Virus record (IMG/VR): IMGVR_UViG_3300033566_000060
Location: 1-64,000 of that record
Direction: 5' to 3' (one strand)
Length of the DNA: 64,000 nt
DNA from: a virus
The translations under genes were made by a program, and so were the position numbers. Each line of letters starts with the position of its first letter. Within the stretch, counting starts at the first letter, position 1. Below the pieces are notes generated by a model. That model worked only from the letters and a program-made list of their open reading frames with translations, ran no database searches and was not told the origin of the DNA. Positions 3,001 through 46,087 of the stretch are shown piece after piece.

Positions 3001-3930
3001 TTTGCACCATCGGAAGTAATCGTGAAGCCGTTACGTATTGTGATGGAAGAAAGAGAAGGCAGGACTGCTAAAGAAAAAATGGAAAAATCCATTATAGAAG
3101 TATTAAAACCATATTTGGGTGCCGACCTTTCGTACAAGACCGCAAATGAGTTAATGACCAACAACGATGAATTCGATAAAAAGATTTATCAGGCGGACAG
3201 TTTTTATGAGGCATTGACCAATAAAAAAGACCTGACACAGATATTGAATTACTACGCCAAGAAAGCCGGTCCCGGAGTGTATTCCAATGTCAGCGACTTT
3301 TTAAGAGCGAACGATAAGGGAAGTGAAGTGTTGGGGGATAAGTTTACGGCGTATGGGAAAGAGTACACGAATTTCGATGCTACGTTGGGATTCTTTGGGA
3401 TTCGCACCTCAACTGTAAACTACTCACAAGCGATTGTGAACAACAACAAAAGAACCACCGCTGTACTTAACGACAACAAGGAGTTTTTAAGAAAAGCAAT
3501 GAAGTCAACCACTAAAATGGCGGATGATCGCTTACAAATGAATTTCGATAGTTATGTAAAAGGAGAAGACGAAGCGTACAAAAAAGTATTGCGTGGGGTG
3601 GAAATTGGATTTAAATTCAATATCAATAAAGGGGAGATGGCAACGCTTTTTGAAAGTTCCAACTATTCCAAGAAAGACATCGCATTTTTGGTGAACGGAT
3701 TCCAACCACCTTACGATTACATCACCAAGGAAACAGCAGTAAACAAGATTACAGAAATAAGGAGCAACTACGATGCGGAAAAAGCAAAAGAGGTTGTACA
3801 GAATTACAAAAGCAATATCGAGCGATTCAACGATATGGTGGATTCAAAAAACAGAGCGTTATACGAATCCAACGGAGAGATTTATAAAAAACTGTACGGC
3901 AGATTTGGAACAAAAAACCCACTTAAATAG
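1..3930 (+). CDS. large virion-associated protein, 5'-partial (open at window edge)
   Basis: Frame 1 has no stop from base 1 to TAG 3928-3930, so the listed GTG at 28 is not the real start. More than 1300 codons. One internal hydrophobic helix (MMVANVLPTALAAYVAAGLGV). No enzyme motif recognised. It would follow the late module if the genome is circular or permuted. Confidence 0.85.
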   Translation, partial: ERAQQVREAVKSFEPSNEYEAALHYIASGGGINTDSASKETGASKETGVSKGEVKWATNFKKNEDLPSVERASEIIAESSSTPLDQPSVRDAMIEILSSHKSITEVHDKILEAREETNKKLKDEENRIFMGSLSEQERTFVESKLAEDDYLSELNDDEKLAYYEQQYGTEQERNQSENRLDGSEQTNGQPESGNPSVQEREGAQPGKTATEKITEDNLPDINKKGASKTIPLSDAVEAKVSVQEFMDGENGYSVQLFNNGELVEDKHGDTETEFTSDETSDLVKFLESKKKGYALSQKGKTGKPEGIKVEVPNQKRRVSFNMFGVEMFGEQQEDGSIIADDNSKYSKGMQSNGVITDVVGIDEGKNYRNEGDVATQGFGGGQRTDSSLSKGGGSMSRNYYKNKVKRAWNRLFKSNAGLDHKSGETLRSLQRDIDYLQDLMGTDSGIFKNVLKATQKASKNKEDFRLKLLALNRYMQGGGGNLDFLGKNEKAQLSYLRDRIDSLSEQVINTLQDQADGLPDGDKKTALLEFIQKLKDNKGKYVNRSYQIFHDEKYREGMAMAYDKMPTEYRKRYDTAVNFMMREEGMTKEEAQSYISGYLDDIIRSKNDISQGFAGRADAPFLKKRKDLPIEFQELLGVVRDPLENYLRTVDKISRYLASLKYQEKMKSHLLESGIGITEPKQGYTKLTSDVKEWEALSDMYVPVEFKQAMEDMLPLDKVNQYVFRKWIEFASLTKVGKTVLNPSGVFRNFMSGTFLGLNAGHFTWTNPKTMGMAFNQALKTNTAKKGMAGLRKELIEQEIIGSGADSQEMLTFMNDFSNSIDRKLSTNPLVPIMNGMQKAYAFGDDFYKVSGYMIEKKRLIDTGVSEAEATRMAGERIRGGYPTYSYLPRAFKELRRIPLVGTFISFPYEVVRSTKNNAMYVHEDWTEGRKVMAMQRAAGMMVANVLPTALAAYVAAGLGVDDEDDDKIRELLPDYQQDALLMYYGKDEKGYPKFVDLTAFAPSEVIVKPLRIVMEEREGRTAKEKMEKSIIEVLKPYLGADLSYKTANELMTNNDEFDKKIYQADSFYEALTNKKDLTQILNYYAKKAGPGVYSNVSDFLRANDKGSEVLGDKFTAYGKEYTNFDATLGFFGIRTSTVNYSQAIVNNNKRTTAVLNDNKEFLRKAMKSTTKMADDRLQMNFDSYVKGEDEAYKKVLRGVEIGFKFNINKGEMATLFESSNYSKKDIAFLVNGFQPPYDYITKETAVNKITEIRSNYDAEKAKEVVQNYKSNIERFNDMVDSKNRALYESNGEIYKKLYGRFGTKNPLK
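109..162 (+). repeat. 18-bp in-frame tandem repeat (two exact copies plus one diverged)
   Basis: gcttctaaagaaaccgga occurs at 109-126 and 127-144, followed by gtttctaaaggagaggtg at 145-162. It encodes ASKETG-ASKETG-VSKGEV. Confidence 0.85.
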
Positions 3931-3945
3931 TGGGTTTTTTTCTTT
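3912..3945 (+). terminator. rho-independent terminator
   Basis: Stem aaaaaacccac / gtgggtttttt with the stop codon in the loop, followed by a T-run. Confidence 0.7.
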
Positions 3946-4122
3946 TTGTTAGGCCGCCATTCTTAATGGTTGTCCTAAAGTAATAACTTTTGCATTTATT
4001 GTTTTTGTTCTCCTTATTACCTAATATTCTATTGTCAAAGCCAAGCACCCCCAAATATTATAGTTTATTATTTGTTTCCCTGACTATAAAAGGGAATAAA
4101 GCAACTTTACACGTTTTACTTG

Positions 4123-4153
4123 TGGAGGTGGAGGGAGTCGAACCCTCGTCCAG
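4123..4153 (-). other. tRNA/tmRNA 3'-end-like fragment (T-arm plus 3' acceptor strand); candidate attP core
   Basis: The minus strand reads CTGGAC-GAGGG-TTCGACT-CCCTC-CACCTCC-A. That is a canonical T-stem/loop plus a 7-nt acceptor strand. No matching 5' acceptor strand (GGAGGTG) lies upstream, so it is a fragment and not a gene. Confidence 0.45.
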
Positions 4154-4282
4154 ATAGCGTTCAATAATACGTCAACGAACAGTTCAAATATACTTTTTTT
4201 TATTAAAAAAACAAAACTTCTTTTTTTCTTTACTCACCGGTTACGATTTCCGGATCGATGACTTCGATTTCTTTTACTTGTT

Positions 4283-4951
4283 TCATAAGTGGTATTTATT
4301 AAAAACACAGTACTCTTCGTTATAAATTCCCAATTCTAGGTTTATCTCATTTCGAAGCTCGATGCGTTGGTTGATATTGAACTTTTTTTGTGACTTTTTA
4401 AGTTTGTTTTTTATTTTACGGGCCTTCATGGTAAAATCCATAAAATCTTCCTGGTTGTAATTTAAAGTTTCGGTACGGCGTAATTCAGAAATAAAATTCA
4501 TATAATCTTGTCCGTATTCTTTAATCAATCCTTCCCTTAATAATCCATCGTCGTTTTGAAAATGGTTGGACTGCGCTGACTGCCGGTGAATATTATGCAA
4601 ATTGTACCGAATGGTTTGGTTACTCCCTCTGGAATACACATGACCGGCATGGAATTGTTTGGCCATGTAATCTCTCGCTAAACATTTTTGGCCGTAATCT
4701 AAAAAGCGAATTATGGCGTTTATTTCATTTTGAAGTTCCTCTTTCCAATTGGTTATTTTTTCGCGTAGTTTTTCTTTTTCGAGACGTTTTTCTTTTTTTC
4801 TTTCTAAGTCTTTTTTAGCAATGGATTTATTGGCTATTTTGGTAGCGTAGGCAACACGGCAATCGTATTGTTGACAAACGGGTTCGGTGGTTAATCTTAC
4901 CGGAGTAAACTCTTGTCCACATTCTTTACACTTCTTTTTTATTACCTTCAT
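4283..4951 (-). CDS. ninG: NinG/Rap-like recombination endonuclease
   Basis: N-terminal Cys-rich zinc finger (CKECGQEF...CQQYDC). HAGHVYSRGSNQTIRYNLHNIHRQSAQSNHF block typical of lambda NinG-family proteins. Confidence 0.7.
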   Translation of the reverse strand: MKVIKKKCKECGQEFTPVRLTTEPVCQQYDCRVAYATKIANKSIAKKDLERKKEKRLEKEKLREKITNWKEELQNEINAIIRFLDYGQKCLARDYMAKQFHAGHVYSRGSNQTIRYNLHNIHRQSAQSNHFQNDDGLLREGLIKEYGQDYMNFISELRRTETLNYNQEDFMDFTMKARKIKNKLKKSQKKFNINQRIELRNEINLELGIYNEEYCVFNKYHL

Positions 4952-5220: not shown

Positions 5221-5319
5221 TACGCAATGCGTTTTTTTGAATAGATTTTAATTAATGACTTATTTCGCAATAAGTTACAAAATATATTTTTTTTGTGCAT
5301 TGCGTATATATGCGAGTTA
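5221..5319 (-). repeat. terminal hairpin closing the minus-strand cassette array
   Basis: After the TAAC of cassette E (plus-strand 5316-5319), a 10-bp stem forms between TACGCAATGC (5221-5230) and GCATTGCGTA (5297-5306). An inner hairpin ACTTATT/AATAAGT is present. No following GTTA box. Confidence 0.6.
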
Positions 5320-5328
5320 GCAGTAATA

Positions 5329-5586
5329 CTACTCAACATTGTCTATATCTCCGTAAGTTTCTAATTCACATTTTTTGTTTAGTAAAATTAAATCTTCCAT
5401 TTTACCAACTACATGAACAGTTTTCCATTTGTTATGATAGTCTTTCATGCTTTTTAATTTTACGTTAAATTCTTTATGATATTTTTTAACGCATTCGGCA
5501 AATTTTATCGGAACATTTGAAATTAAAGTACTACTGCTAACATCGGTTTTGTTCAATGCCTTGTTTTGGTCTTTTTCTGTATTCAT
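5329..5586 (-). CDS. hypothetical protein (cassette E cargo)
   Basis: Boxed by GTTAGCAGTAGTAC (plus coords 5528-5541) and GTATTACTGCTAAC (5316-5329). The ATG lies in the loop of the upstream hairpin. There is no ATG close downstream of the 5' box; the first is 27 codons in. Confidence 0.7.
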   Translation of the reverse strand: MNTEKDQNKALNKTDVSSSTLISNVPIKFAECVKKYHKEFNVKLKSMKDYHNKWKTVHVVGKMEDLILLNKKCELETYGDIDNVE

Positions 5587-5665
5587 TCCATTTAATTTTA
5601 AGTTAGTGTTTACTTGTTGTGTTCAGTTTTAAATCAACGGCACTAAACAAAGCCGAGAACCGTTA
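5538..5665 (-). repeat. attC-like imperfect hairpin element (between cassettes D and E), 128 bp
   Basis: Minus strand reads TAAC-GGTTC-TCGG-C-TTTGTTTAGTGCC ... GGCATTGAACAAA-A-CCGA-T-GTTA. About 18-bp stem with a C:A mismatch 6 nt from GTTA. The loop contains the start codon of the next ORF. Confidence 0.8.
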
Positions 5666-5672
5666 GCGGTAA

Positions 5673-6101
5673 TTATACATCAACTTCATGTGAAAAAGAT
5701 TCGTATAAATATCTTTGTCCTAATTTCGTTAAAGTCCATTTTTTAGTAACTAATCCTAATTCCTCAACAATACATTTTGCTGTATGACCTGTATAATATC
5801 CACCTGCGCATTTCAATAATGTGCTTCTTAGTACATCGCGTTTTTCACAATCACCAAAATTTGCATTACCCCAAGCATAAATCAATTGTTCGTCTGAAAT
5901 TATTTTTTTCAACTCGCCATTATAACTACCGCTAACATTGGTTTTATGCAATTGCAAGGCTTGGTCTTTTTCTGCCGTGATTATTTCTTTTGCCTTTAAT
6001 ACATCCTCTACAAGTTTTTTACCTGTTGTGGTTAATGAATCAGTCAAATTCCAATCAAATTTGTCATGCAATAGTTTTAAAATTTCTTCGTAATCTTCCA
6101 T
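5673..6101 (-). CDS. hypothetical protein (cassette D cargo fused to a hairpin-encoded N-terminal segment)
   Basis: Boxed by GTTAGCGGTAGTTA (5923-5936) and TAATTACCGCTAAC (5662-5675). The first ~45 codons lie inside the enlarged hairpin loop. The conserved LQLHKTNVSGS segment is encoded across the right arm and the box. Confidence 0.7.
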   Translation of the reverse strand: MEDYEEILKLLHDKFDWNLTDSLTTTGKKLVEDVLKAKEIITAEKDQALQLHKTNVSGSYNGELKKIISDEQLIYAWGNANFGDCEKRDVLRSTLLKCAGGYYTGHTAKCIVEELGLVTKKWTLTKLGQRYLYESFSHEVDV

Positions 6102-6157
6102 AATTTTTGTTTTGTTAAGTGATTAATCTTTGCAACTGCATAAAGCCTTTGACGTTA
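5933..6157 (-). repeat. attC-like hairpin element, enlarged (225 bp, between cassettes C and D)
   Basis: Stem formed by plus-strand 5940-5957 and 6130-6147 (ggttttatgcaattgcaa / ttgcaactgcataaagcc) with one G:T pair and the conserved C:A mismatch. The ~170-nt loop carries 45 codons of ORF 5673..6101. Confidence 0.7.
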
Positions 6158-6526
6158 GCGGCAATACTTGACGTGCTTCCGTAAATCATTCGGCAGTTGA
6201 TAAACGGTAATCAATCTATTGTCGCAAAAGAAAAATATGTTTTCACCATAAATTCTTACGTTGTTGCAATGCTTGTAATTGAACCAAAGTTTTGTCAGGT
6301 ATCTCATTAGACTGCCTTTTGTGTCCTTATGTCTTACACCTTCCAAAAAAGCCTTTTCAGCCATTTTATCCAAAACTTTTGACTTCCAATTCAGCCTTTC
6401 TTTTGCTCTTTCGTAGGCGTGTTCCGTGATTAGTACTGCCGCTAACACAGGTTTTGCGTCAGGCGGGCATACGTTGTTATCTTCAACTTTTATTTCTTCT
6501 ATCATCTTTTGTGGTTTTATGAACAT
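6155..6526 (-). CDS. hypothetical protein (cassette C cargo)
   Basis: Boxed by GTTAGCGGCAGTAC (6433-6446) and GTATTGCCGCTAAC (6154-6167). The stop codon lies inside the 3' box. Start moved to ATG 6526 in the hairpin loop, because the track start at 6577 lies in the previous cassette's 3' box. Confidence 0.65.
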   Translation of the reverse strand: MFIKPQKMIEEIKVEDNNVCPPDAKPVLAAVLITEHAYERAKERLNWKSKVLDKMAEKAFLEGVRHKDTKGSLMRYLTKLWFNYKHCNNVRIYGENIFFFCDNRLITVYQLPNDLRKHVKYCR

Positions 6527-6570
6527 TTGTAATTCTAATTCCCGCCCGAACGCAAAGCCTCGTAACGTTA
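6443..6570 (-). repeat. attC-like imperfect hairpin element (between cassettes B and C), 128 bp
   Basis: Minus strand reads TAAC-GTTAC-GAGG-C-TTTGCGTTCGGGCGGG ... CCCGCCTGACGCAAA-A-CCTG-T-GTTA. It has the same C:A mismatch position and one bulge. Confidence 0.8.
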
Positions 6571-6579
6571 GGAGCAAGC

Positions 6580-7029
6580 TTACGAGCGACCGTCAAAAAC
6601 GACAATCATACTATCTTTGGTCCCGCTTTGTTCCTTTCCATCTTTGTTTAATGGAATGTAAAAGTTTCTGTTTTCGTCTAACTTTCCAAATTTAATTCTA
6701 CCTTTTAAAAATTCTATTTCAGTTGCGTTTGGTTTGATCCATTCGTGAAATAATTTTGTGCTTGTAGATACCGGAATAAGGAAAACACAAACTTTTCCTT
6801 TATTCATTTCTTCAACTCCTTTTTTTACAAATTCCTCTTTTAGTTTTTGGCTATAAGGCGGATTTACAAAATTTGAGTTTCCCCATTCGATTTTCAAACC
6901 ATCATTTACAATTTCATTTTCATTGTAAGGACAAGGATCAAAATCAAAATTAAAACGCTTATTTAATTCCTCATATAATTTTGGAGGTGTAGCATAATTG
7001 TCATCGTTGTTTATGTGTATTTTTTTCAT
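6580..7029 (-). CDS. phage Dam-type N6-adenine DNA methyltransferase (cassette B cargo)
   Basis: YATPPKLYEEL...FDFDPCP...W...NSNFVNPPYS pattern (NPPY motif IV) typical of small phage N6A methylases. Boxed by GTTAGGAGCTGGCT (7052-7065) and AGCTTGCTCCTAAC (6567-6580). It has its own ATG 23 nt after the 5' box. Confidence 0.75.
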   Translation of the reverse strand: MKKIHINNDDNYATPPKLYEELNKRFNFDFDPCPYNENEIVNDGLKIEWGNSNFVNPPYSQKLKEEFVKKGVEEMNKGKVCVFLIPVSTSTKLFHEWIKPNATEIEFLKGRIKFGKLDENRNFYIPLNKDGKEQSGTKDSMIVVFDGRS

Positions 7030-7061
7030 TTCAAATTTTTAGTTGATAAAAAGCCAGCTCC

Positions 7062-7187
7062 TAACATCGGTTTGAAAGCAATGGCAAAATATGTGGTTTA
7101 ATCACGTTTATCTTTCGCAAGAAATTCATTAGTAACGGAAAATTTATCTTTCCGAAATTTGCCACTGCTTCAAGCCGAGTACCGTTA
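7062..7187 (-). repeat. attC-like imperfect hairpin element (between cassettes A and B), 126 bp
   Basis: Minus strand reads TAAC-GGTAC-TCGG-C-TTGAAGCAGTGGCAAA ... TTTGCCATTGCTTTCAA-A-CCGA-T-GTTA. About 22-bp stem with the C:A mismatch and one bulged C. Confidence 0.8.
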
Positions 7188-7196
7188 GCGGTAATA

Positions 7197-7472
7197 CTAA
7201 TTTACATCATCATTCCATAAAGGATGGTCGCAATTATCACAAAAACCAACTCTTATTTCTCTATTATCTTTCTTTACGTTTATTTCCTTACAATCTGTAC
7301 ATTCATAAATTTTGAATCCAACAGGTAAAGCACTACCGCTAACACTGGTTTTATGCAATTGCAAGAGTTGTTTTAATTCAGTAAGCAACTGTTCATTTAA
7401 TTTTGTTATCGAACCGTGTTCTTTTGATAATTCAAGAGCTGTTATTTTATCTTGTACTGTTTTAAATTCCAT
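7197..7472 (-). CDS. zinc-ribbon protein (cassette A cargo fused to an N-terminal leader)
   Basis: C-terminal CxxC...CxxC (YECTDCKE...FCDNCDH). Boxed by GTTAGCGGTAGTGC (7330-7343) and GTATTACCGCTAAC (7184-7197). The leader ends in LQLHKTSVSGS, nearly identical in DNA to the cassette D leader. Confidence 0.7.
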   Translation of the reverse strand: MEFKTVQDKITALELSKEHGSITKLNEQLLTELKQLLQLHKTSVSGSALPVGFKIYECTDCKEINVKKDNREIRVGFCDNCDHPLWNDDVN

Positions 7473-15245: not shown

Positions 15246-15253
15246 TATATTTG
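15246..15253 (+). promoter_or_regulatory. Bacteroidota-type -7 promoter box (TATATTTG)
   Basis: Matches the TAnnTTTG consensus. Positioned to drive the plus-strand cassette array. Confidence 0.5.
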
Positions 15254-15261
15254 CTAAAGAA

Positions 15262-15387
15262 TAACGGTTCGCAGCTATACGAAGGGCGGGATTTAAAAAC
15301 AAAAATTTAATATGATGCAGAAAACTTTATTTGAAAACGAGAACTTGATTGAACCACTAAAACCCGCCTTTTGTATAGGTGCTGTTA
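15262..15387 (+). repeat. attC-like imperfect hairpin element H0 (head of plus array), 126 bp
   Basis: TAAC (15262-15265) plus GGTTC spacer. Stem 15271-15290 pairs with 15363-15382 (two G:T pairs, one G:G mismatch 5 nt from GTTA). The 72-nt loop contains ATG 15312. Ends in GTTA 15384-15387. Confidence 0.8.
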
Positions 15388-16346
15388 GCCGCAGTACTTT
15401 GTTGTTCGGGGATTGCTTGATTGAAAGCGATAAAATAGAAAGTGGCTCAGTTGATTTAATATTGACCGATTTGCCTTATGGAAATATGAAGGGATTAAAT
15501 TATAAAGTATTTAATAACCCCAGTAAAGATAACGGTGGTTTGATTTGGGATAATACGATTGATGCAAATAAAATAATGCAAATAGCAAACCGAATACTTC
15601 GTAAAAATGGTAAAATGCTTTTATTTGCTCAACAACCGTTCACGACTGAATTAATAAATGCACAAATACCAAACTTACCGCATTCTTATAATTTAATTTG
15701 GGAGAAAACAGACTTTGCAAACTGCTTATTAATAAATAAGTCTTGTGCTAATTTTTATGAAGATATTTTGATATTTAGTAAGAACCACCAAAAACACGAC
15801 TTTGAAGGAATGCACCCATTAAGACATTATTTTAAAAAAGTTATGGATTTTATAGGGCTTAATAAAAAAGCGATAGTTGAAAAGATAGGACAAAAGGCAG
15901 ACCATACATTTAGAACTGATAGTACTCAATACGGATTATGCACCGAAAAAACATACTTAGAATTGATTGAAGTATTTGGTATTGATAAAATAGAAGGATT
16001 TAAAACCTTTGCAGAATTAAAGCAAATTGATACTGAATATAGAACTGACTTATTAAAGCAAATGAATAACCAATACCCAAGTACTTTTAACCTTTGGGAG
16101 GGCAACAAATACAAAAGCAACATTTTGAAATACAAAAAGGATTACAACGGCTATCATCCTACTCAAAAACCTATTTTATTGCTTGAAGATTTAATAAAGA
16201 CTTTTAGTAACGAAGGTAATTTAGTAGTTGACTTAACAATGGGTAGCGGCTCAACTGGAGTTGCTTGTAAGAACACAAATAGAAACTTTATCGGAATTGA
16301 GAAAGATGAAAATTATTATAATGTCGCTGTACGGAGGTGTTCTTAG
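15312..16346 (+). CDS. DNA methyltransferase, N4/N6 beta-class (cassette 1 cargo)
   Basis: DLILTDLPYGN (motif IV, DPPY-like) precedes the C-terminal VVDLTMGSGSTGVAC (motif I). Boxed by GTTAGCCGCAGTAC (15384-15397) and GTATTGCGGCTAAC (16346-16359). The first 24 codons lie in the hairpin. Confidence 0.8.
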   Translation: MMQKTLFENENLIEPLKPAFCIGAVSRSTLLFGDCLIESDKIESGSVDLILTDLPYGNMKGLNYKVFNNPSKDNGGLIWDNTIDANKIMQIANRILRKNGKMLLFAQQPFTTELINAQIPNLPHSYNLIWEKTDFANCLLINKSCANFYEDILIFSKNHQKHDFEGMHPLRHYFKKVMDFIGLNKKAIVEKIGQKADHTFRTDSTQYGLCTEKTYLELIEVFGIDKIEGFKTFAELKQIDTEYRTDLLKQMNNQYPSTFNLWEGNKYKSNILKYKKDYNGYHPTQKPILLLEDLIKTFSNEGNLVVDLTMGSGSTGVACKNTNRNFIGIEKDENYYNVAVRRCS

Positions 16347-16355
16347 TATTGCGGC

Positions 16356-16481
16356 TAACGTCCTGCCACTTGGCGATGTGGCAAAAAAGTACGCCCGAAT
16401 TATCGGATTATTACAAGTGCGTAAGGCACAAAACCAATTATAAATTAAGCCTGAACTTGCCATATTGCCAAATGGCTGTTA
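16356..16481 (+). repeat. attC-like imperfect hairpin element H1, 126 bp
   Basis: TAAC plus GTCCT spacer. Stem 16365-16384 pairs with 16457-16476, with C16369 opposite A16472 and two G:T pairs. 72-nt loop. Ends in GTTA 16478-16481. Confidence 0.85.
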
Positions 16482-16512
16482 TGTGAGGTTGTGGGTTTTT
16501 AAAACAGATTTT

Positions 16513-16950
16513 ATGACAATAAACATTGATTTTGATGGAACTTGTGTTACTCACGATTTCCCAAACGTAGGAAAAAGTATTGGTGCTGAAAAAGTGCTAA
16601 AAAGATTAGTAGATAATGGACATCATTTGATATTATTTACAATGCGTTCTGATAGAAAAGAGGCAAAACCTGTAATTGACCCAACAATACAAAATGTAAC
16701 AGGTAAATTCTTAACAGAAGCGGTTGAATGGTTTAATAGAAATGATATTAAACTTTACGGAATACAGAAAAATCCAACACAATTAAATTGGACTACTTCG
16801 CCAAAAAGCTATGCTGAATTAATGATTGATGATAGTGCATTAGGTTGTCCGTTAAGATTTGATGCAGAAGTTTCAGAAAGACCATTTGCTTGTTGGGAAA
16901 CAATTGAGCAGTATCTGGAGAATATGGGTTGTTTTAAAACGCAATCGTAA
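16513..16950 (+). CDS. HAD-superfamily phosphatase-like protein (cassette 2 cargo)
   Basis: N-terminal DFDGT (DxDxT) motif. Boxed by GTTATGTGAGGTTG (16478-16491) and CAATCTCACATAAC (16951-16964). Start taken at ATG 16513, downstream of the box. Confidence 0.6.
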   Translation: MTINIDFDGTCVTHDFPNVGKSIGAEKVLKRLVDNGHHLILFTMRSDRKEAKPVIDPTIQNVTGKFLTEAVEWFNRNDIKLYGIQKNPTQLNWTTSPKSYAELMIDDSALGCPLRFDAEVSERPFACWETIEQYLENMGCFKTQS

Positions 16951-16960
16951 CAATCTCACA

Positions 16961-17076
16961 TAACGTTACCTCGCTTGGCTTAGTGCCGAGTTATGAAAAC
17001 AATAATTTATAATTTAAAATAAACGTGATGAAAAACGATATAAACGAAAATAAGGCATTGAGCCAAACGAGTGTTA
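16961..17076 (+). repeat. attC-like imperfect hairpin element H2, 116 bp
   Basis: TAAC plus GTTAC spacer. Stem 16970-16987 pairs with 17054-17071, with C16974 opposite A17067. The loop holds the GTG/ATG at 17025/17028. The arms resemble those of the minus-array element at 5538-5665. Confidence 0.85.
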
Positions 17077-17360
17077 GGCGTTGTTTTGCTAATTCATTGC
17101 CTTTTTACGAATACCCAATTCCAGAAGAAAACAGAATTAAAAAATTATTTTCTGAATTTGAAATTAGAGAAATTGGTATTAAAAAAGTTACCGATAGAAT
17201 TCGTAAAGAAATGGGTGCGAAATTTAATTGCAATAGAGTTGAAGTTGATTGGATTACTTCTGAATTAAAAAAACCAACCAAAGATACTTTAAAGGCAATT
17301 GAATGGTTTGACGATTATAGATTTCCTAATAAAGTTAGACGTCTTGAAAATAACGCCTAA
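17028..17360 (+). CDS. hypothetical protein (cassette 3 cargo)
   Basis: Boxed by GTTAGGCGTTGTTT (17073-17086) and AAATAACGCCTAAC (17348-17361). The stop codon is inside the 3' box and the start is inside the H2 loop. Leader NKALSQTSV parallels NKALNKTDV of ORF 5329..5586. Confidence 0.7.
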   Translation: MKNDINENKALSQTSVRRCFANSLPFYEYPIPEENRIKKLFSEFEIREIGIKKVTDRIRKEMGAKFNCNRVEVDWITSELKKPTKDTLKAIEWFDDYRFPNKVRRLENNA

Positions 17361-17486
17361 CGTTCGAGTGCTTGCAGAAGTTAGGGAAAAGTAAGTACTA
17401 ATTTTCGATTAAAAAACTAATAATAACAAACACAAACCAAGCCATCAAGTAAAGCCTAAAACCCTAATTTTTGCAAACACTTGTTA
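17358..17486 (+). repeat. attC-like imperfect hairpin element H3, 129 bp
   Basis: Stem 17366-17386 pairs with 17462-17482 (21 bp, several G:T pairs, C17371 opposite A17477). 75-nt loop. Ends in GTTA 17483-17486. Confidence 0.85.
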
Positions 17487-17508
17487 TGTGCTGTTAATTT
17501 ATCTACAA

Positions 17509-17739
17509 ATGAAAATAGTAAAAATTGAATTAAAAGACAGTATTTTTTATGTTACCAAAAAGCCTAATCTTTTAGAAAAAATATTTGGCAAAAAAGAAAA
17601 AGTTGAAAGATATAGAACAAACAACGATGTATTTCACTATTTCAATCACGTAACTGTTTTTTACAAAGAAGATGGTTCTATTGTTTCTATTAGCAATAAA
17701 ATGTGTGATGTTCTTAATAACTACTTACGTTCTTTTTAA
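17509..17739 (+). CDS. hypothetical protein (cassette 4 cargo)
   Basis: Boxed by GTTATGTGCTGTTA (17483-17496) and TAATAGCACATAAC (17737-17750). ATG 17509 chosen because the track GTG at 17488 lies inside the box. Confidence 0.65.
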   Translation: MKIVKIELKDSIFYVTKKPNLLEKIFGKKEKVERYRTNNDVFHYFNHVTVFYKEDGSIVSISNKMCDVLNNYLRSF

Positions 17740-17746
17740 TAGCACA

Positions 17747-17874
17747 TAACGTTCCGCAACTACACGTCTGTTGCGTAAAAGAACAAAACCATCTTTCAGT
17801 TTAACACGGATTTGAAAGGTACAAAACCAAATATAAATTAATCACAATGTAGCAATAGCGTGTAATTGCTGTTA
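17747..17874 (+). repeat. attC-like imperfect hairpin element H4, 128 bp
   Basis: Stem 17756-17766 pairs with 17859-17869, with C17760 opposite A17865. The loop shares ACAAAACCAAWTATAAATTAA with H1. Confidence 0.8.
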
Positions 17875-17889
17875 TAAGCAGAACGAGTT

Positions 17890-18291
17890 ATGAAAAATAA
17901 AATTTTTGTTTTAGAAGATTTAGATTTTTATTTACCTGATAGTTTTAAAGGAATGGGTAAGCAGTACTTATTAGATTGTATTTTTAACGATAAAATACAA
18001 CGTAAATGGTCGCCAAAAATAGGGGATGTTATGATTGGATGTACTGGAAATATATTTGTTGTTTCATCAGAACACAAACTCAAAGAAGTTTTAGGCGGAA
18101 ACTTATTCTTTTTTGGTGGAGGATTATGCAATAGAGATGGTGGATGTACTCTTAATGACACATATTCATTAACTATGAATAAAAGTGGAAAATGGATTCA
18201 ATACACTAAAGGAGGTTATGAAGAAACAAGCAATCCTTATCACAGTTCGTTTTCTGATTTCAGATATATTCCTTATCCACACGAATTGTAG
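17890..18291 (+). CDS. hypothetical protein (cassette 5 cargo)
   Basis: Boxed by GTTATAAGCAGAAC (17871-17884) and GTTTTGCTTATAAC (18291-18304). It has its own ATG 6 nt after the 5' box. Confidence 0.7.
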   Translation: MKNKIFVLEDLDFYLPDSFKGMGKQYLLDCIFNDKIQRKWSPKIGDVMIGCTGNIFVVSSEHKLKEVLGGNLFFFGGGLCNRDGGCTLNDTYSLTMNKSGKWIQYTKGGYEETSNPYHSSFSDFRYIPYPHEL

Positions 18292-18300
18292 TTTTGCTTA

Positions 18301-18356
18301 TAACGGCTATATGTACAAAACCTTCTAAACCATTAATAAAATAAACACTATACGCC
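18301..18356 (+). repeat. degenerate terminal hairpin abutting the recombinase start codon
   Basis: TAAC-GGCTATATG ... CACTATACGCC-ATG. Weak stem with bulges. The loop keeps the ACAAAACC motif of H1/H4. No GTTA box follows; the recombinase ATG takes its place. Confidence 0.5.
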
Positions 18357-19157
18357 ATGAAAAACTCAAACTTTGTACAAAAATATGAGAGAGATTTAAA
18401 AGTTAAAAACTACTCTCAGAATACTATTAAAAATTATGTTGCACAGATCAATATGTTTTTGGGCTATTTCAAAGAAAAGGATAGCCCGAAACATATCTCT
18501 TCAGACGACATAAAAAACTATCTTTTAACCGCCAAGGAAGTAAATAGTCAACGGCACATGCATTCGGCAATAAAACTGTTCTACAAGTTAACGGTACATC
18601 AGCCTAAAAAGTTTCAATTTATAGAGTATTCCAGGCGCGAAAAACGTTTGCCAAAAATAATCGATAAGGATTACATTATTCAACAGATTGGTAAAATTGA
18701 AAACGTAAAGCATAAAGCGATTATAACGCTTACTTTTTCCACCGGAATGCGTGTTTCAGAAGTATGCAATTTAAAAATAGAAAACATCGACAGCAAAAGA
18801 ATGTTGATTCTCATTAAAAACGCAAAAGGGAATAAGGACCGATATGTTCCTTTATCGCAAACAACACTGGAAACATTACGCATTTACTTCTTAGAATATC
18901 ACCCAAAAGAATATTTATTCAATGGCCAATTTGATTTACAGTATTCACACCGGAGCTGTAACCAGATTGTAAAGAAGTATCTCGGCAACGAATATCATTT
19001 TCACCAATTGAGGCATTCGAACGCTACCGCACTTCTGGAAGCCGGAACCGATTTGAGATATATACAGAAACATCTTGGACATTCGAACGTAAAGACAACA
19101 GAAATATATTGCCATGTATCAACCGCTATGCTTTCAAAATTAAATTTACCAATCTAA
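18357..19157 (+). CDS. small Xer/IntI-like tyrosine recombinase
   Basis: SAM-like N-terminal domain (YSQNTIKNYVAQINMFLGYF). Catalytic set: TGMRVSEV (R), GKGNKDRYVPL (K), HQLRHS (HxxR), GHSNVKTTEIYCHV (H...Y). At 266 aa it is shorter than canonical IntI. Confidence 0.85.
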   Translation: MKNSNFVQKYERDLKVKNYSQNTIKNYVAQINMFLGYFKEKDSPKHISSDDIKNYLLTAKEVNSQRHMHSAIKLFYKLTVHQPKKFQFIEYSRREKRLPKIIDKDYIIQQIGKIENVKHKAIITLTFSTGMRVSEVCNLKIENIDSKRMLILIKNAKGNKDRYVPLSQTTLETLRIYFLEYHPKEYLFNGQFDLQYSHRSCNQIVKKYLGNEYHFHQLRHSNATALLEAGTDLRYIQKHLGHSNVKTTEIYCHVSTAMLSKLNLPI

Positions 19158-19182: not shown

Positions 19183-20430
19183 ATGAATATCCGATATTAC
19201 ATAAGAGGCACCAAAGAGCTAAAAAACATTTATGTGCGTTTGGTTTCCAAAGGGATTGATGTTTCGGCTCCGGTGGGTATTTTCGTGCAAGAGTTTCAAT
19301 GGGATTCCAAAAAAGAGCTTTGCGATTCCAACCAAACCAACGCCAAATTGTACCAACTCAAAGCGGTATTGTTGGGCCGATACAACCAATCGTATGCCTC
19401 CGGAGAGGCCATCGATAAAAATTGGCTTTTGGAAACAATCAAATCGGTGTTCCAAAGACCGGCGCAAGAGGTGAAATTGGTATCGAAAGCACATACTATC
19501 TACCTGAGTGATTTTTGCAGTTTTTGGTTGCAGCAACACGCAAAGTCATGGAAAGTCTCGGCTTTGGAAACCATGGGAGAAACACTAAAAAAGCAATACG
19601 AGAATTTCGTGCTAATTTTGGAGGCTTACGAAAAATCGTTGGATAGCAAGATAAAACTAAAAGAAGCGGATTCCGACTTTATTTATGGGTTTGTGGGGTA
19701 TCTATCCAAAGAACAAAAGTTCTCACGGGAAACGGTAAAAAGAAGTGTAATCCGATTGAAATTCTTTTTAAAGCGCGCGGAAGAATTGCGTTTCGAGGTG
19801 AATAAGGATTATTTGAAACCGGTGTACCTTGAAAAACAACCCGAAATCCAGGACGTGTACCATAGCGAATCCGACATCCAAAAACTGTTCGCGTTGGATT
19901 TATCAGACGACTACAAAATGGAAGCCGCCAACGATAATATGATTATGACATGTTGGTTGGGATTACGTGTATCGGATTTTATGACGCGTTTCAATTTAGA
20001 CAGCATCAAAGACGGATATGTTTCCATCAAGACGCAAAAAACCGGATCATTCGTAGTTATTCCTTTGCACCCGATGGTAAAAGCGATATTAGCAAAACGT
20101 TTTGGACAACTCCCGCCTAAACTCTCGAATACGGAGTACAATTTACTGATAAAAAAGGTAGCGGAGAAAGCAGGACTTAACGAATTGGTGTACGGAAAGA
20201 AATACAACCCGGAAACGAACCGAAAGGAAATCGGATATTACAAAAAGTACGAATTGGTAACGAGTCACACTGGCCGAAAAAGTTTCGCAACAAACCTAAA
20301 AGGCAAGGTTCCGGACGATGTTATTATCAATTGTGCTGGCTGGACCTCACCTACGATGTTGGCTCATTACGACAAGAGAAACGGTAAACAATTTGCAGAA
20401 CAACTAAACGAATACTACAACGGAAAATAA
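19183..20430 (+). CDS. int: Bacteroidota phage-type tyrosine integrase
   Basis: 415 aa with an N-terminal arm-binding-like domain. Catalytic set: LGLRVSDF (R), SHTGRKS (HxxR), AGWTSPTMLAHYDK (W...Y). Confidence 0.85.
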   Translation: MNIRYYIRGTKELKNIYVRLVSKGIDVSAPVGIFVQEFQWDSKKELCDSNQTNAKLYQLKAVLLGRYNQSYASGEAIDKNWLLETIKSVFQRPAQEVKLVSKAHTIYLSDFCSFWLQQHAKSWKVSALETMGETLKKQYENFVLILEAYEKSLDSKIKLKEADSDFIYGFVGYLSKEQKFSRETVKRSVIRLKFFLKRAEELRFEVNKDYLKPVYLEKQPEIQDVYHSESDIQKLFALDLSDDYKMEAANDNMIMTCWLGLRVSDFMTRFNLDSIKDGYVSIKTQKTGSFVVIPLHPMVKAILAKRFGQLPPKLSNTEYNLLIKKVAEKAGLNELVYGKKYNPETNRKEIGYYKKYELVTSHTGRKSFATNLKGKVPDDVIINCAGWTSPTMLAHYDKRNGKQFAEQLNEYYNGK

Positions 20431-29074: not shown

Positions 29075-29279
29075 TGGACACTTAAAGTAAAAAAGTGGAC
29101 ACTTAGACATTTGGTTGTCAGCAAGTTATGATTTTTATATGTAAAAAAAGTGGACAGTAGTGATAAAAAAGGTGGACACTTTGTTGAAAAAGGGCAAAAA
29201 GTGGACAAAAGTGGACAGTTGGCAATAAAAAATGGACAGTAAAAATGGACACTTTATTTGGATATATGGACAGTGTCCA
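29075..29279 (+). repeat. array of nine direct A-tract-TGGACA boxes ending in the palindrome TGGACAGTGTCCA
   Basis: TGGACA starts at 29075, 29096, 29151, 29173, 29202, 29212, 29233, 29246 and 29267. An inverted TGTCCA lies at 29274-29279. Most copies are preceded by A4-7 and followed by C/G-T. Confidence 0.85.
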
Positions 29280-29320
29280 CTATCTTTATAATTAAGTTTA
29301 ATAAATTAAAAGCTATAGTT

Positions 29321-29650
29321 ATGAAAAACGATGTAAGAGATCAGAAGATTTTGGATTTGAACAATTCTGGAAAGAGCAATAGAGAGATTGCTTTGGAGTT
29401 GAATATTAGTAAGAGTACGGTGAACAAGGTGCTGAATGATTTGTTGTTAAAAGATGAGGGTGTTTCACCAAAAGAGGTTGTTCCGATAAAGTTGGATGGT
29501 GACGAGCAGAGGTTTACGTCATTTGTGGGATATGAGAGAGTTGATGTGAATGTTTATGTTCACAAGGAGACTGGCGAGATGGTAAAGGTTGCGTATGTAA
29601 GGGCGAAGAGTCCGGATGATTTTGGGTATTTTGTGAGATTGAAGGATTAG
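29321..29650 (+). CDS. HTH DNA-binding protein, first gene of the rightward block
   Basis: NNSGKSNREIALELNISKSTVNKVLNDL helix-turn-helix. Start moved to ATG 29321 because the track start at 29258 lies inside the TGGACA array. Confidence 0.65.
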   Translation: MKNDVRDQKILDLNNSGKSNREIALELNISKSTVNKVLNDLLLKDEGVSPKEVVPIKLDGDEQRFTSFVGYERVDVNVYVHKETGEMVKVAYVRAKSPDDFGYFVRLKD

Positions 29651-29777
29651 TTTGATTGTGAAAAAAAATCGACTGCAAAGCAGTAATGTATGATATAAGC
29701 CGGCGAGAGTCGGTTTTTATTTTTATATGGATTCGATATAAATAGTCATAAATTGTAAAATTTTACATAATTAGTTG

Positions 29778-29785
29778 TATGTTTG
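29778..29785 (+). promoter_or_regulatory. -7 promoter box TATGTTTG
   Basis: TAnnTTTG match about 40 nt upstream of ATG 29824. Confidence 0.45.
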
Positions 29786-29823
29786 TAGTAGATAAAATAA
29801 AACTAACACTAAAACAATAAACT

Positions 29824-30141
29824 ATGGAATTTAAAGGAACAAAAGGGAAGTGGCACTTAATGAAAAAAGGCTTTAGAAAAAGTGAAAACAATAATTTAAT
29901 TCAAGTTTATGCCACAAACGAAGATTTAGAATTGATTTGTGAAGTTTGGAAAGATAGATTATTACACGAGAGAGAACAGAACTTTGAAGCAAATGCATTA
30001 CTAATATCAAAAGCTCCTGAGATGCTTGAACTTTTACAGAATATTAATAATGGGACTACATTCGATAAAGAGACAGGATTGATGTGGTCTCATTGGGTAG
30101 AAAAAATACAAGAACTAATCAAAGAAGCAACAGAACTATAA
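29824..30141 (+). CDS. hypothetical protein
   Basis: 105-aa ORF. Confidence 0.65.
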   Translation: MEFKGTKGKWHLMKKGFRKSENNNLIQVYATNEDLELICEVWKDRLLHEREQNFEANALLISKAPEMLELLQNINNGTTFDKETGLMWSHWVEKIQELIKEATEL

Positions 30142-34620: not shown

Positions 34621-34922
34621 TATAATATCATGGTGACATCGTTGAAGTACACGCAGTCGTACACTTCTGAATCTACCGTAATCGGACTGGTTTTATACCC
34701 ATCGTACATGATGGTATCTCCGGGTTGTAAAATGGTATTTCCGGAATCGTCTTTCGGACATAGATTACCCAAACTCTGCACAATCCCTTTACGGAATTTT
34801 TGGTTTTTGTCCTCTGCAGAAGTCAAATCCAATCCGGATCCGGTAACTTGCTTGTTCTCGATTTGCTTTACAATCACGATGGAATTTAAAGCCTGTCCTT
34901 TGAATTTAATTTCTTGGCTCAT
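34620..34922 (-). CDS. groES: GroES-like co-chaperonin
   Basis: 100 aa. IKFKGQALNSIVIVKQ...TGSGLDL...RKGIVQSLG...LQPGDTIMYDGYK...VYF.DV..IL follows the Cpn10 pattern. Overlaps the groEL stop. Confidence 0.75.
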   Translation of the reverse strand: MSQEIKFKGQALNSIVIVKQIENKQVTGSGLDLTSAEDKNQKFRKGIVQSLGNLCPKDDSGNTILQPGDTIMYDGYKTSPITVDSEVYDCVYFNDVTMIL

Positions 34923-36462: not shown

Positions 36463-36495
36463 ATAGTAAATGTTAGTGAATTGATTAAACTGAAA

Positions 36496-36503
36496 CAAAT
36501 GTA
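36496..36503 (-). promoter_or_regulatory. -7 promoter box (TACATTTG on minus strand) for groEL-groES
   Basis: The plus strand reads CAAATGTA, about 35 nt upstream of ATG 36462. Confidence 0.45.
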
Positions 36504-45202: not shown

Positions 45203-46087
45203 ATGACAAAAATAAAAAACATAGTAGTTTACAATTACGACAATAACATCTCAGACGACGACTTTTTAGTAGGTTCTGATGCGGACACCCAAAACAAAGA
45301 AACGAAAAGCTATGCGATGGGTGCTGTTCGCCAATTCTTGTTGTCGGGACTTTCACCAGAAGTAGGCGGGACACTCAGAATGACAGAAGTGGTTTGTGAA
45401 GATGAATTGGTATTGACTCCGGAAGCGGTTTTAAACGCTTTGGATCCATCATTAACAGTATTACAATACCATTTGGTATTTGTGAAACTGAACGGACAGC
45501 AATTCTTATTCACAAAACAAGACATTGTGGTGGGAAATGGCGAAGACTATACTGTGGTAAATGAAGATTTTATTGAGTTTCCTGTTTCAGTTGGGCCACA
45601 AGGACCGCAAGGTGAAATAGGACCAAAAGGAGACCAGGGAGACCAAGGATTACAAGGAGAGGATGGACTTCCAGGAGAAGATGGTGCCGATGGTGTTTCT
45701 GTGGTAGCATCAGGAACAACCACTACTGTTACAGGAACCGGTACAGAATTGGATCCGTATAAAGTAGAAGAAGAAAACCTTCAAAAAACAATCAGTACAT
45801 TCCCTTATACACTTACCGATGCCGATGACAAGTACACTATTTTTGTGGATAACAGCGCTTCGAATATAACAATCAATGTTCCAGGTACTTTAAAGGCGAA
45901 ATTTGCTTGTGTTTTTGTACAATTAGGGACAGGATTGGTTAGCTTTACAGGAACAGCAAGTGCGACTCTGAAATTACCTACAGGATATGTGGCTGAAATT
46001 ATCGTACAGAACGGATGGGTTTTAGTTGAAAAAAGACTCACGAGTACCGATTATCATTTGGGCGGGTATTTAGCAACAACAATGTAA
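45203..46087 (+). CDS. collagen-like tail fibre protein 2
   Basis: N-terminus MTKIKNIVVYNYDNNISDDDFLVGSDADTQNKETK is homologous to fibre 1. Gly-X-Y run GPQGPQGEIGPKGDQGDQGLQGEDGLPGEDGADG at about 45593-45694. Confidence 0.8.
   Translation: MTKIKNIVVYNYDNNISDDDFLVGSDADTQNKETKSYAMGAVRQFLLSGLSPEVGGTLRMTEVVCEDELVLTPEAVLNALDPSLTVLQYHLVFVKLNGQQFLFTKQDIVVGNGEDYTVVNEDFIEFPVSVGPQGPQGEIGPKGDQGDQGLQGEDGLPGEDGADGVSVVASGTTTTVTGTGTELDPYKVEEENLQKTISTFPYTLTDADDKYTIFVDNSASNITINVPGTLKAKFACVFVQLGTGLVSFTGTASATLKLPTGYVAEIIVQNGWVLVEKRLTSTDYHLGGYLATTM

Follow-up and report, generated by a model that had tools for sequence, protein, structure and literature searches.

A probable integron-like cassette array beside a XerA-like recombinase gene in a putative flavobacterial phage genome

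The stretch of DNA analysed here, referred to below as the window, comprises 64,000 nucleotides (positions 1 to 64,000 of the IMG/VR virus record IMGVR_UViG_3300033566_000060). It reads as a large flavobacterial phage: besides a replication module and NinG/Rap there are genes for a GroEL-like and a collagen-like protein, together with big open reading frames (ORFs) that have no Pfam match. It looks like a phage genome of more than 60 kb rather than a piece of host chromosome. Its plus strand carries an array of gene cassettes adjoined by a gene for a tyrosine recombinase. Read from right to left, the order is recombinase gene (18357-19157), putative attI-like junction (18301-18356) and five units, each made up of a hairpin, a GTTA box, an ORF and a TAAC box. 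A second array of the same kind lies on the minus strand. The features are listed below; R1 denotes the covariance model of the hairpin elements described further on.

15246-15253, plus: promoter-like box TATATTTG, just upstream of H0, read in the sequence
15262-15387, plus: H0, attC-like element at the distal end of the array (R1 90.7 bits, E = 2.4e-15)
15266-16359, plus: cassette unit 1, consisting of H0, box GTTAGCCGCAGTAC (15384-15397), the methyltransferase ORF 15312-16346 and box GTATTGCGGCTAAC (16346-16359)
15312-16346, plus: cargo 1, N6/N4 DNA methyltransferase ORF (Pfam PF01555, E = 2.8e-29)
16360-16964, plus: cassette unit 2, consisting of H1 (16356-16481), box GTTATGTGAGGTTG, ORF 16513-16950 and box CAATCTCACATAAC (R1 105.5 bits)
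16513-16950, plus: cargo 2, HAD-type phosphatase-like ORF (NCBIfam BT0820-family, E = 1.5e-17, below the model cutoff)
16965-17361, plus: cassette unit 3, consisting of H2 (16961-17076), box GTTAGGCGTTGTTT, a 110-aa ORF (17028-17360) and box AAATAACGCCTAAC (R1 88.6 bits)
17362-17750, plus: cassette unit 4, consisting of H3 (17358-17486), box GTTATGTGCTGTTA, a 76-aa ORF (17509-17739) and box TAATAGCACATAAC (R1 117.6 bits)
17751-18304, plus: cassette unit 5, consisting of H4 (17747-17874), box GTTATAAGCAGAAC, a 133-aa ORF (17890-18291) and box GTTTTGCTTATAAC (R1 117.8 bits)
18301-18356, plus: putative attI-like terminal junction, formed by the last TAAC and the adjoining GGCTATATGTACAAAA..., 52 nt ahead of the recombinase ATG
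18357-19157, plus: 266-aa tyrosine recombinase, XerA-like, candidate cassette recombinase (Pfam PF00589, E = 1e-36, and PF13495)
5316-7343, minus: second array of the same grammar without an adjacent recombinase, recognised by sequence reading, box pairs and R1
7062-7187, 6443-6570, 5933-6157 and 5538-5665, minus: elements of the second array (R1 75.9, 96.4, 43.5 and 105.8 bits, respectively)

All five pairs of 5' and 3' boxes lie where an earlier note, made from the letters alone, had placed them, and each of the five cassettes has its own perfectly complementary 10-nt core. The hairpin lengths given in that note (126, 126, 116, 129 and 128 nt from TAAC to GTTA) were likewise borne out, with heavy covariation, and so was the minus array, through its box pairs and four R1 matches. 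The box TATATTTG, a putative promoter, fits the Bacteroidetes -7 promoter consensus TAnnTTTG.

The elements fold as long imperfect hairpins and share a common plan. N10-TAAC is followed by 5 nt (mostly GTTNC) and by an imperfect ~20-bp stem whose A-rich loop spans ~70 nt; after the return arm come 1 nt (T) and GTTA-N10. H0, which follows this plan from TAAC through its 5 nt, stem, A-rich loop, second stem arm and 1 nt to GTTA, has a predicted fold energy of -18.5 kcal/mol on the plus strand vs -11.3 kcal/mol on the minus strand. The strand described by the model, which in the plus array is the plus strand, folds more stably than its complement in 8 of the 9 window elements. Two mismatches recur at fixed places in the stem: column 34/128 is a G.T in 44 of 50 elements, and stem position 5 is a C.A in 29 of the 50. 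The conserved G.T and C.A positions explain the more stable fold of the plus strand. The spacers are asymmetric, with 5 nt on one side vs 1 nt on the other. The predicted folds and alignments contained no conserved bulged (extrahelical) bases; there is a 5-nt vs 1-nt internal loop instead. One minus-array element (5923-6167, R1 43.5 bits) has a long loop of ~200 nt that codes for the first ~50 residues of its cargo protein.

Conservation of structure rather than of sequence is evident from the substitutions. RNAalifold found compensatory changes at 17 of 24 pairs in eight window elements, and at 16 of 21 stem pairs in 50 elements from 16 sources. Only TAAC(G) and (T)GTTA were invariant across these 50, so that the AAC and GTT cores are fixed while the remainder varies. 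R1 was built from the same 50 phage elements of 16 sources. Applied to the window it returned nine complete elements (five on the plus and four on the minus strand) with E values of 1.7e-20 to 2.3e-6, and no further match below E = 0.9 within the 64 kb.

The end boxes follow a rule of their own. A scan of the window for GTTA+N6 followed within 100-1600 nt by the reverse-complementary N6'+TAAC gave 12 pairs, nine of which lie inside the two arrays, compared with ~1.2 unique pairs in base shuffles (mean 2.32 when both strands are counted). The three extra pairs (26219/27027, 28650/29026 and 61090/61497) are at chance level, have no R1 match and were discarded. Complementarity extends over 14 nt. 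In 74 cassettes covariation of the boxes affects positions 5-10 and 12-14, where each of the four Watson-Crick pair types occurs, and position 11 is a conserved G.T in 68 of these cassettes. Successive cassettes keep the rule at 11-13 of the 14 positions with many different box sequences. The boxes pair within their own cassette and not with the adjacent box, which is the footprint to be expected if crossover takes place at only one point, located at one end of the folded site. One pair, GTTATGTGAGGTTG / CAATCTCACATAAC, occurs identically at 16478-16964 of the window and in the viral loci L008 (2877-3270), L016 (4748-5283) and L019 (1507-1894). The idea that this is one moving cassette was ruled out because the four cargo proteins are unrelated; the same pair around unrelated cargo rather indicates site types that are common to different cassettes, as is the case with attC families.

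The cargo consists mostly of proteins without known function, with DNA methyltransferases as the main recognisable class. In the plus array, cargos 3-5 (110, 76 and 133 aa) had no family match in Pfam or NCBIfam. Among 60 distinct cargo proteins 11 matched Pfam DNA methyltransferase families (seven N6/N4, three C5 and one Dam), PHROGs suggests ~13 methyltransferases, or about a fifth, and there were also one PAPS reductase and one HTH protein. A PADLOC scan of the cargo returned methyltransferase models only. The position of the reading frames relative to the hairpins is peculiar. Of 86 cargo ORFs 35 begin in the A-rich loop of the upstream hairpin (for example at window positions 15312, 17028 and 6101, and in loci L001-L021) and run through the 3' arm and the GTTA box, always in the frame GTT-ANN, which gives N-termini like ...KTAV(S/I/T)GS. 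Stop codons stand at fixed offsets: some are formed by the TAA of TAAC, others immediately precede the 14-nt box. Thus the ATG of cargo 1 is within the H0 loop, and cargo 3 starts in a loop and ends with the TAA of TAAC.

Beyond the last cassette the earlier note had seen a degenerate hairpin at 18301-18356. This did not stand: the segment gives no real fold (-2.6 kcal/mol) and its sequence is conserved across related loci. The recombinase gene starts 52 nt after the last TAAC, and TAAC^TACTATATGTAAAAA (the caret marks the junction here and below) is kept 52-56 nt before the recombinase ATG in at least 14 related loci and in a Flavobacterium columnare prophage. The arrays of recombinase-bearing phage loci generally end in a conserved TAAC^TACTATATGTA junction. 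In a comparison of the window with L005, whose recombinase is 92% identical, homology begins at 18300, one base before the last TAAC, and the arrays upstream are unrelated. Similar closing sequences occur in arrays that lack a recombinase, namely TAAC^TACAATATTACATG in Lillamyvirus phages (sniff/hemulen) and, in the minus array of the window, the terminal TAAC at 5316-5319 followed by TCGCATATATACG. The segment 18301-18356 is therefore a putative attI-like junction, and it may also carry the recombinase promoter. The site lies at the 5' end of the recombinase gene, and the gene is directed away from the array; compared with an integron, however, the cargo occupies the other strand and is transcribed toward the recombinase.

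Comparison with sequenced phages defined the unit of exchange. In a megablast search against phage records only two pieces of the window region matched, both in Baltic Sea Flavobacterium phages of the genus Lillamyvirus. One comprised the ends of the methyltransferase unit (15261-15440 at 87%, ~180 nt, and 16155-16361 at 74%, ~209 nt), the middle of the gene being too diverged for a DNA match; these matches start and stop at the TAAC boundaries of the unit. The other was H4 alone (17744-17877 at 89%). The phages sniff9-1 and hemulen6-1, which share an element 87% identical to H0, consist of blocks that are 99.6-99.9% identical to each other and interrupted at element boundaries. At one position sniff9-1 has a filled site, ...cttttacaTAAC^gctttgcaac...(hairpin, gp014)...gagttaTAAC^GTTAaagc..., and hemulen6-1 the empty one, ...cttttacaTAAC^GTTAaagc..., so that the two differ cleanly by one cassette. 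Two further replacement events, one internal and one in the last cassettes reaching the terminal junction, separate this pair, and all breakpoints of the indel and of both replacements fall at ...TAAC^G.... Such differences amount to comparative evidence for insertion, deletion and replacement of cassettes at exact junctions; a lack of evidence for excision or insertion was among the refutations named in the earlier note. Because both the polymorphisms and the methyltransferase unit are bounded by TAAC^G, the unit consists of hairpin, GTTA box, ORF and TAAC box. An ORF together with the hairpin that follows it is not the mobile unit, since TAAC bounds both sides and the hairpin belongs to the downstream cassette. 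A hairpin-first unit also fits the many ORFs that start in the upstream loop.

The same grammar with different cargo was found in many other phages, viral contigs, a prophage and chromosomes. The early region of sniff9-1 holds ~16 cassettes, some of them with short-loop versions of the element (70-90 nt). Scanning of IMG/VR with the recombinase gave 18 loci, of which 15 hold the start of a gene that is at least 55% identical; in 14 of these 15 the elements immediately precede the recombinase gene on its own strand, and none lies downstream. The largest array, in L008, has 12 elements. The F. columnare prophage, at around 1,233,000-1,238,800 of CP197485.1, shows the same arrangement upstream of its recombinase. 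The phage P12002L of Polaribacter (L076, minus strand, ~29150-30100 and 38010-38960) has TAAC-hairpin-GTTA elements of only 55-60 nt that precede methyltransferase and Mom-like genes. More distant homologues of the recombinase, 34-39% identical (phages Ingeline and Freya, L020/L021), had no adjacent array by the scanner or by R1. Freya infects Polaribacter and Ingeline Cellulophaga; their 'integrases' are 34-37% identical, and arrays beside these genes were accordingly rejected as candidates. In isolates of Freya the 34%-identical 'integrase' is found at positions from 50 to 4147 of otherwise similar records (L003 is Freya_10, 1-4200), so that the region upstream of it seems to be variable. 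Immediately ahead of this 'integrase' stands a gene flanked by GGTGTTAGCAAC / GTTGCTAACACC, where neither the scanner nor R1 detected elements.

Bacterial chromosomes provided the second body of evidence. In the genome collection the relatives of the recombinase are only 26-58% identical, and the 52 loci encoding them appeared array-free in an exact TAAC/GTTA scan. This was a false negative: the chromosomal cores are GTT(A/G) and (T/C)AAC and the arrays are on the other side of the gene, so the exact scan missed what R1 found. At E <= 0.01 R1 detected 40 elements beside 40-47%-identical recombinases in 15 Bacteroidota genome loci, the genera including Psychroserpens, Xanthomarina, Winogradskyella, Wocania, Croceitalea, Maribacter, Mariniflexile, Algoriphagus, Labilibaculum and Roseivirga; one such locus is on NZ_JSWG01000009 of Psychroserpens jangbogonensis. 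These elements retain the cassette-specific box complementarity and the mismatch at position 11, and 94.7% of their stem cells are paired vs 77.9% in shuffles, a degree of pairing that none of 500 shuffles attained. Directly after the recombinase stop codon comes a conserved palindrome, GGATATAGACAATTGTCTATATCC-AATT^GTTG, sometimes in two copies. The chromosomal cargo includes RluA, a beta-lactamase-fold protein, thioredoxin-like proteins and T9SS proteins. Many draft contigs (L026-L032, L040, L049) stop 200-1000 bp past the recombinase gene, just beyond the GGATATAGACAATTGTCTATATCC site; the repeats of the arrays probably break assemblies, and chromosomal arrays are therefore likely to be under-counted.

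All 40 chromosomal elements lie on the strand opposite to the recombinase gene and beyond its 3' end. The cargo genes there are co-directional with the recombinase and antisense to the model strand. Cargo direction is therefore opposite in the phage and the chromosomal forms while the polarity of the elements is constant, which means that polarity tracks the recombinase-proximal end of the array and not transcription. This rule is hard to reconcile with a role purely at the mRNA level, the outcome that the earlier note had named as a refutation, and fits a role at the DNA level.

What kind of enzyme is encoded next to the array? The earlier description as a Xer/IntI-like recombinase stands in its first half, a Xer-like tyrosine recombinase of 266 aa, and not in its second, because the additional domain specific to IntI is absent. 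The best NCBIfam model is XerA/'integron integrase' (181 bits vs a cutoff of 220), and the other Xer models are also below cutoff (XerC 153 bits vs 335, XerD 147 bits vs 330). The integron integrase model TIGR02249 reaches 139.5 bits vs a cutoff of 265, with the alignment in two pieces. The closest solved structures are XerA proteins (4a8e, 5hxy). Against IntI4 (2a3v), residues 4-170 align with 3-173 and residues 215-256 with 266-307, which leaves ~48 residues of IntI4 unmatched; judged from this alignment, the unmatched stretch corresponds to the IntI-specific insertion (I2 helix), which would be absent from the recombinase. In the IntI4 structure this insertion presumably contacts the bulged bases of the site, and the lack of such bases here would go together with the lack of the insertion. 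More than 120 protein clusters are at least 62% identical to the recombinase, annotated only as XerD or tyrosine recombinase, and homologues in Cellulophaga and Polaribacter phages are labelled 'integrase'. The chromosomal relatives are ~375 aa long when counted from the first ATG, owing to an N-terminal extension of ~107 aa that has no family match and is absent in the 266-aa phage enzymes; one of them (L047, 9680-10807) passes the NCBI XerA/'integron integrase' cutoff with 241.7 bits vs 220.

Downstream of the recombinase gene the window encodes another enzyme of this superfamily:

19183-20430, plus: 415-aa second tyrosine integrase (weak Pfam PF00589 and PF13102)

It has no homologue in any related locus and was rejected as a part of the system. 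It is probably the lysogeny integrase of the phage.

Taken together, the arrays probably constitute a site-specific, integron-like cassette platform that is served by the adjacent recombinase; we put the probability of this reading at roughly three in four. The cassette array tied to a neighbouring recombinase that the earlier note had proposed is upheld in this form, with the corrections concerning the unit, the terminal junction, the reversed cargo and the enzyme, which is not an IntI. Viewed from the other strand, the parts are ordered as in a classical integron: a recombinase pointing away from attI, followed by repeats of GTT-cargo-AAC-hairpin-GTT with the cargo inverted. It is not a classical integron, because the additional domain of IntI is absent and the sites lack bulged bases.

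A mechanism for cassette recombination can be modelled on IntI acting on attC and on XerCD acting on the folded attP of phage CTX. In an excised circle the GTTA and TAAC boxes of a unit would pair beside its hairpin, giving a complete two-stem site comparable to the R and L boxes of attC. The model strand (the plus strand, which is the coding strand in the plus array) would fold, and recombinase subunits would bind the box stem and the hairpin stem. The enzyme would then cut one strand at the 5'-arm TAAC and swap it with that of another element or of a terminal TAAC^TACTATATGTA-like site, and the resulting junction would be resolved by replication. A promoter at the distal end would drive transcription of the cargo, toward the recombinase. 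The likely role of such an array is to allow flavobacterial phages to swap early accessory genes, especially anti-restriction DNA methyltransferases.

Several observations weigh against this interpretation. The I2 helix insertion is regarded as required for recombination of single-stranded attC (PMC7790495), and the recombinase is without it. Neither a circular cassette nor an empty/filled pair could be tied to the recombinase. sniff9-1 and the other virulent Lillamyvirus phages encode no tyrosine recombinase despite their long arrays, so that the enzyme must act in trans, supplied for example by resident prophages or by the related enzymes of the host, or another mechanism must be at work. 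Several hairpins are 82-91% identical between arrays while the cargo on both sides differs. H1, for instance, is 91% identical to L008 5675-5802 and H4 89% identical to L001 7414-7546 (sniff9-1), and in both cases different cargo follows the copy. Sharing of hairpins without their cargo implies exchange at the GTTA side as well, or homologous recombination or gene conversion. The frequent start of cargo ORFs in the loop (35 of 86) means that the hairpin may also serve expression. Finally, the recombinase is the only tyrosine recombinase seen within the flanks in most related phages, and could also, or instead, be a lysogeny integrase or a multimer resolvase.

The last point leads to the alternative that survives best, although we consider it unlikely: the elements are recombination sites, the 266-aa protein is a lysogeny integrase or multimer resolvase, and some other enzyme, for example a host-encoded one, moves the cassettes. 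Apart from its being the sole tyrosine recombinase near the arrays, the naming of its homologues as 'integrase' in Cellulophaga and Polaribacter phages speaks for this, as does the turnover of cassettes in phages that have no recombinase; moreover, the hosts encode recombinases of 40-47% identity with their own arrays of cross-detectable sites. Against it stand the separate 415-aa integrase right beside the recombinase in the window and the location of the gene in the F. columnare chromosome, where it is mid-prophage with phage genes on both sides for 10 kb and not at a prophage end. In divergent phages a conserved sequence directly continues the last TAAC, and its distance to the start of the gene is constant; the presence of an array tracks the recombinase clade, since the 34-39%-identical homologues have no adjacent array. 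The recombinase may also have a dual role, in cassette movement and in lysogeny.

A slightly less probable explanation holds that hairpins and boxes are expression signals, acting in mRNA processing or stability, in translation initiation or as early promoter/terminator modules, and that the genes are shuffled by homologous or illegitimate recombination between these motifs, a process to which the recombinase is unrelated. The elements of phage arrays are always in sense orientation, their conserved non-Watson-Crick positions are mostly G.U-compatible on the sense strand, many cargo ORFs begin in the loop, hairpins are shared without their cargo, and virulent phages have arrays and no tyrosine recombinase. 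A precedent exists in the PeSL modules of T4-type phages (PMC2839356, PMC4122927). The chromosomal elements, however, are antisense to their cargo and yet keep the G.T-rich strand and the polarity toward the recombinase in 40 of 40 cases. Nor does this explanation account for the complementarity of 14-nt boxes across 100-1400 nt of ORF, for polymorphism boundaries at one exact junction or for the conserved site that closes the arrays right beside the recombinase gene. The elements also differ from terminators: a scan for intrinsic terminators found only small local stems, and the large hairpins, with their ~70-nt loops, lack a T-run. There was no excess of sigma-70-like promoters (17 found vs 19.4 expected, in a scan that does not cover Bacteroidetes promoters), and a reading of the elements as terminators or promoters thus received no support. 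Rfam at gathering thresholds gave no match for the elements, its sole match in the window being a permuted tmRNA.

That the system is merely a divergent classical integron, with an IntI and with attC sites recognised by IntI enzymes and by IntegronFinder, is very improbable: the GTT/AAC cores (cassette 3 even has GTTAGGC/GCCTAAC), the integron-like geometry and the calling of a short family member in P12002L as an attC by HattCI (PMC9892861) point that way, but the IntI-specific insertion is absent, the sites have no extrahelical bases and spacers of 5/1 nt, P12002L_attC1 is the one phage site that IntI1 did not recombine, and surveys see almost no integrons in Bacteroidetes (PMC9024848).

The relationship to known systems deserves a closer look. 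As in classical integrons (class 1, or the chromosomal integron of Vibrio cholerae), a tyrosine recombinase stands beside a terminal site that is followed by mostly single-ORF cassettes. Imperfect hairpins separate the cassettes and have invariant AAC...GTT cores in otherwise free, covarying sequence. The first bases of a cassette are complementary to the inner box of its own site, and the GTT/AAC core marks the boundaries. Folding favours one of the two strands, the element length of 116-129 nt is within the range of attC, and arrays without an integrase exist in both. Canonical attC sites have two extrahelical bases and an unpaired central spacer of ~5/6 nt (PMC2727003). The present sites instead have conserved G.T and C.A mismatches and a 5x1 internal loop in place of the two bulges and roughly symmetric spacer, and the recombinase, lacking the I2 helix domain, is closer to XerA. 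Furthermore, cargo of the phage form is on the folding strand, often starts in the loop and is read toward the recombinase from a distal promoter and not from Pc, and the system occurs in Bacteroidota and their phages, where integrons have been reported to be nearly absent. It therefore falls outside the classical integrons by its integrase domain and by the fine structure of its sites, and matches them in architecture and in the footprint of recombination.

The biology of integrons is built on a single enzyme family, IntI. IntegronFinder defines IntI by its inserted domain, and this domain is held to be the innovation that enabled recombination of folded single strands (PMC7790495, PMC4889954). 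Archaeal integron integrases have it too (PMC9668308), although in a classification of tyrosine recombinases the insertion was not fully conserved in the 'integron-like' subgroup (PMC8138268). The example of XerCD on the folded single-stranded attP of CTX phage and on integrative mobile elements exploiting Xer (IMEX) shows that such chemistry is possible without the I2 helix: there, as proposed here, a Xer-type enzyme without the IntI insertion exchanges a single strand at a folded hairpin. In CTX and IMEX a whole phage genome is inserted at dif, whereas the present system has a cassette array with cassette-specific end boxes, and its recombinase is phage-borne and lies beside a multi-site array and not beside a lone dif site. 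The pdif modules of Acinetobacter plasmids resemble the array in that gene modules are bounded by XerC/XerD sites in varied contexts. They differ in that pdif sites are 28-bp duplexes in alternating orientation, with no known hairpin, array polarity or dedicated recombinase. In the 'reverse' integrons of Treponema/Spirochaetota the integrase is upstream of, and co-directional with, the cassettes, as is the chromosomal recombinase in Bacteroidota; those integrons have a true IntI with the additional domain and canonical attC sites, whereas the chromosomal attI-like site described here would follow the 3' end of the gene. The PeSL cassettes of T4-type phages share with the arrays that small early accessory genes are flanked by conserved stem-loops and vary between close relatives (PMC2839356, PMC4122927). 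PeSLs are promoter-terminator motifs thought to recombine homologously, without a recombinase, complementary end boxes or a single exact junction.

The minus array and the arrays of Lillamyvirus, which have no adjacent recombinase, resemble the clusters of attC sites lacking an integrase (CALINs) reported in phages by Qi et al. 2023 (PMC9892861). In Polaribacter phage P12002L these authors noted two 'attC' sites, located by methyltransferase genes, and took both for ordinary sites of integrons; P12002L_attC1, alone among six phage sites, gave no verified recombinants with IntI1 (PMC9892861). By its sequence, attC1 is one of the short P12002L elements and hence a short member of the present family. 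The report on CALINs describes no dedicated recombinase, terminal site, long arrays or chromosomal counterparts (PMC9892861). The main text and one supplementary file of a survey of 10,705 phage genomes (downloaded 2022) name no Flavobacterium phage, and an IntegronFinder survey saw almost no integrons in Bacteroidetes (PMC9024848). Nilsson et al. found 15 methyltransferase genes distributed patchily among Lillamyvirus phages, one of which correlates with plating efficiency, and mention neither hairpins nor cassettes (PMC7077304). No published description of the recombinase-array system was found in the literature searched, which covered few subscription journals.

The integron architecture as a whole thus recurs, with a recombinase that lacks the domain and with differently built sites, in flavobacterial phages, in the prophage of a fish pathogen and in many genera of Bacteroidota. 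Whether it amounts to a second integron lineage in this phylum and its phages is in our view an evenly balanced question. Such a lineage would employ a plain Xer/XerA-like enzyme on folded single-strand hairpins, with strand choice governed by the mismatches and the asymmetric loop instead of by bulged bases, and would be either ancestral to the IntI integrons or an independent invention; phages would use the form with inverted cargo to exchange anti-restriction methyltransferases and further early genes, among themselves and perhaps with host arrays as well. Should the enzyme be confirmed, the origin of integron integrases from Xer-type enzymes would become open to direct test. A large and unrecognised pool of mobile cassettes would then come to light in marine and freshwater Bacteroidota, the swapping of host-range-setting methyltransferase genes between close phage relatives (PMC7077304) would be explained, and a compact recombinase of 266 aa with structure-specific sites would be available as a tool.

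Elsewhere in the window, the GroEL-like chaperonin gene (34906-36498, minus strand; phrog_5725, E = 1e-114) has large ORFs without a Pfam match as neighbours, with a collagen-repeat protein (45203-46087) and an HNH protein nearby. A permuted tmRNA-like gene of the two-piece type is located at 3858-4214 on the minus strand, with the tag peptide AKVITLGQPLRMAA* (ARAGORN; Rfam RF04321, 65.2 bits vs 47). It looks phage-encoded because it is directly downstream of the phage NinG/Rap gene (4283-4951, minus strand), and a phage-encoded tmRNA looks unusual for a Bacteroidota context.

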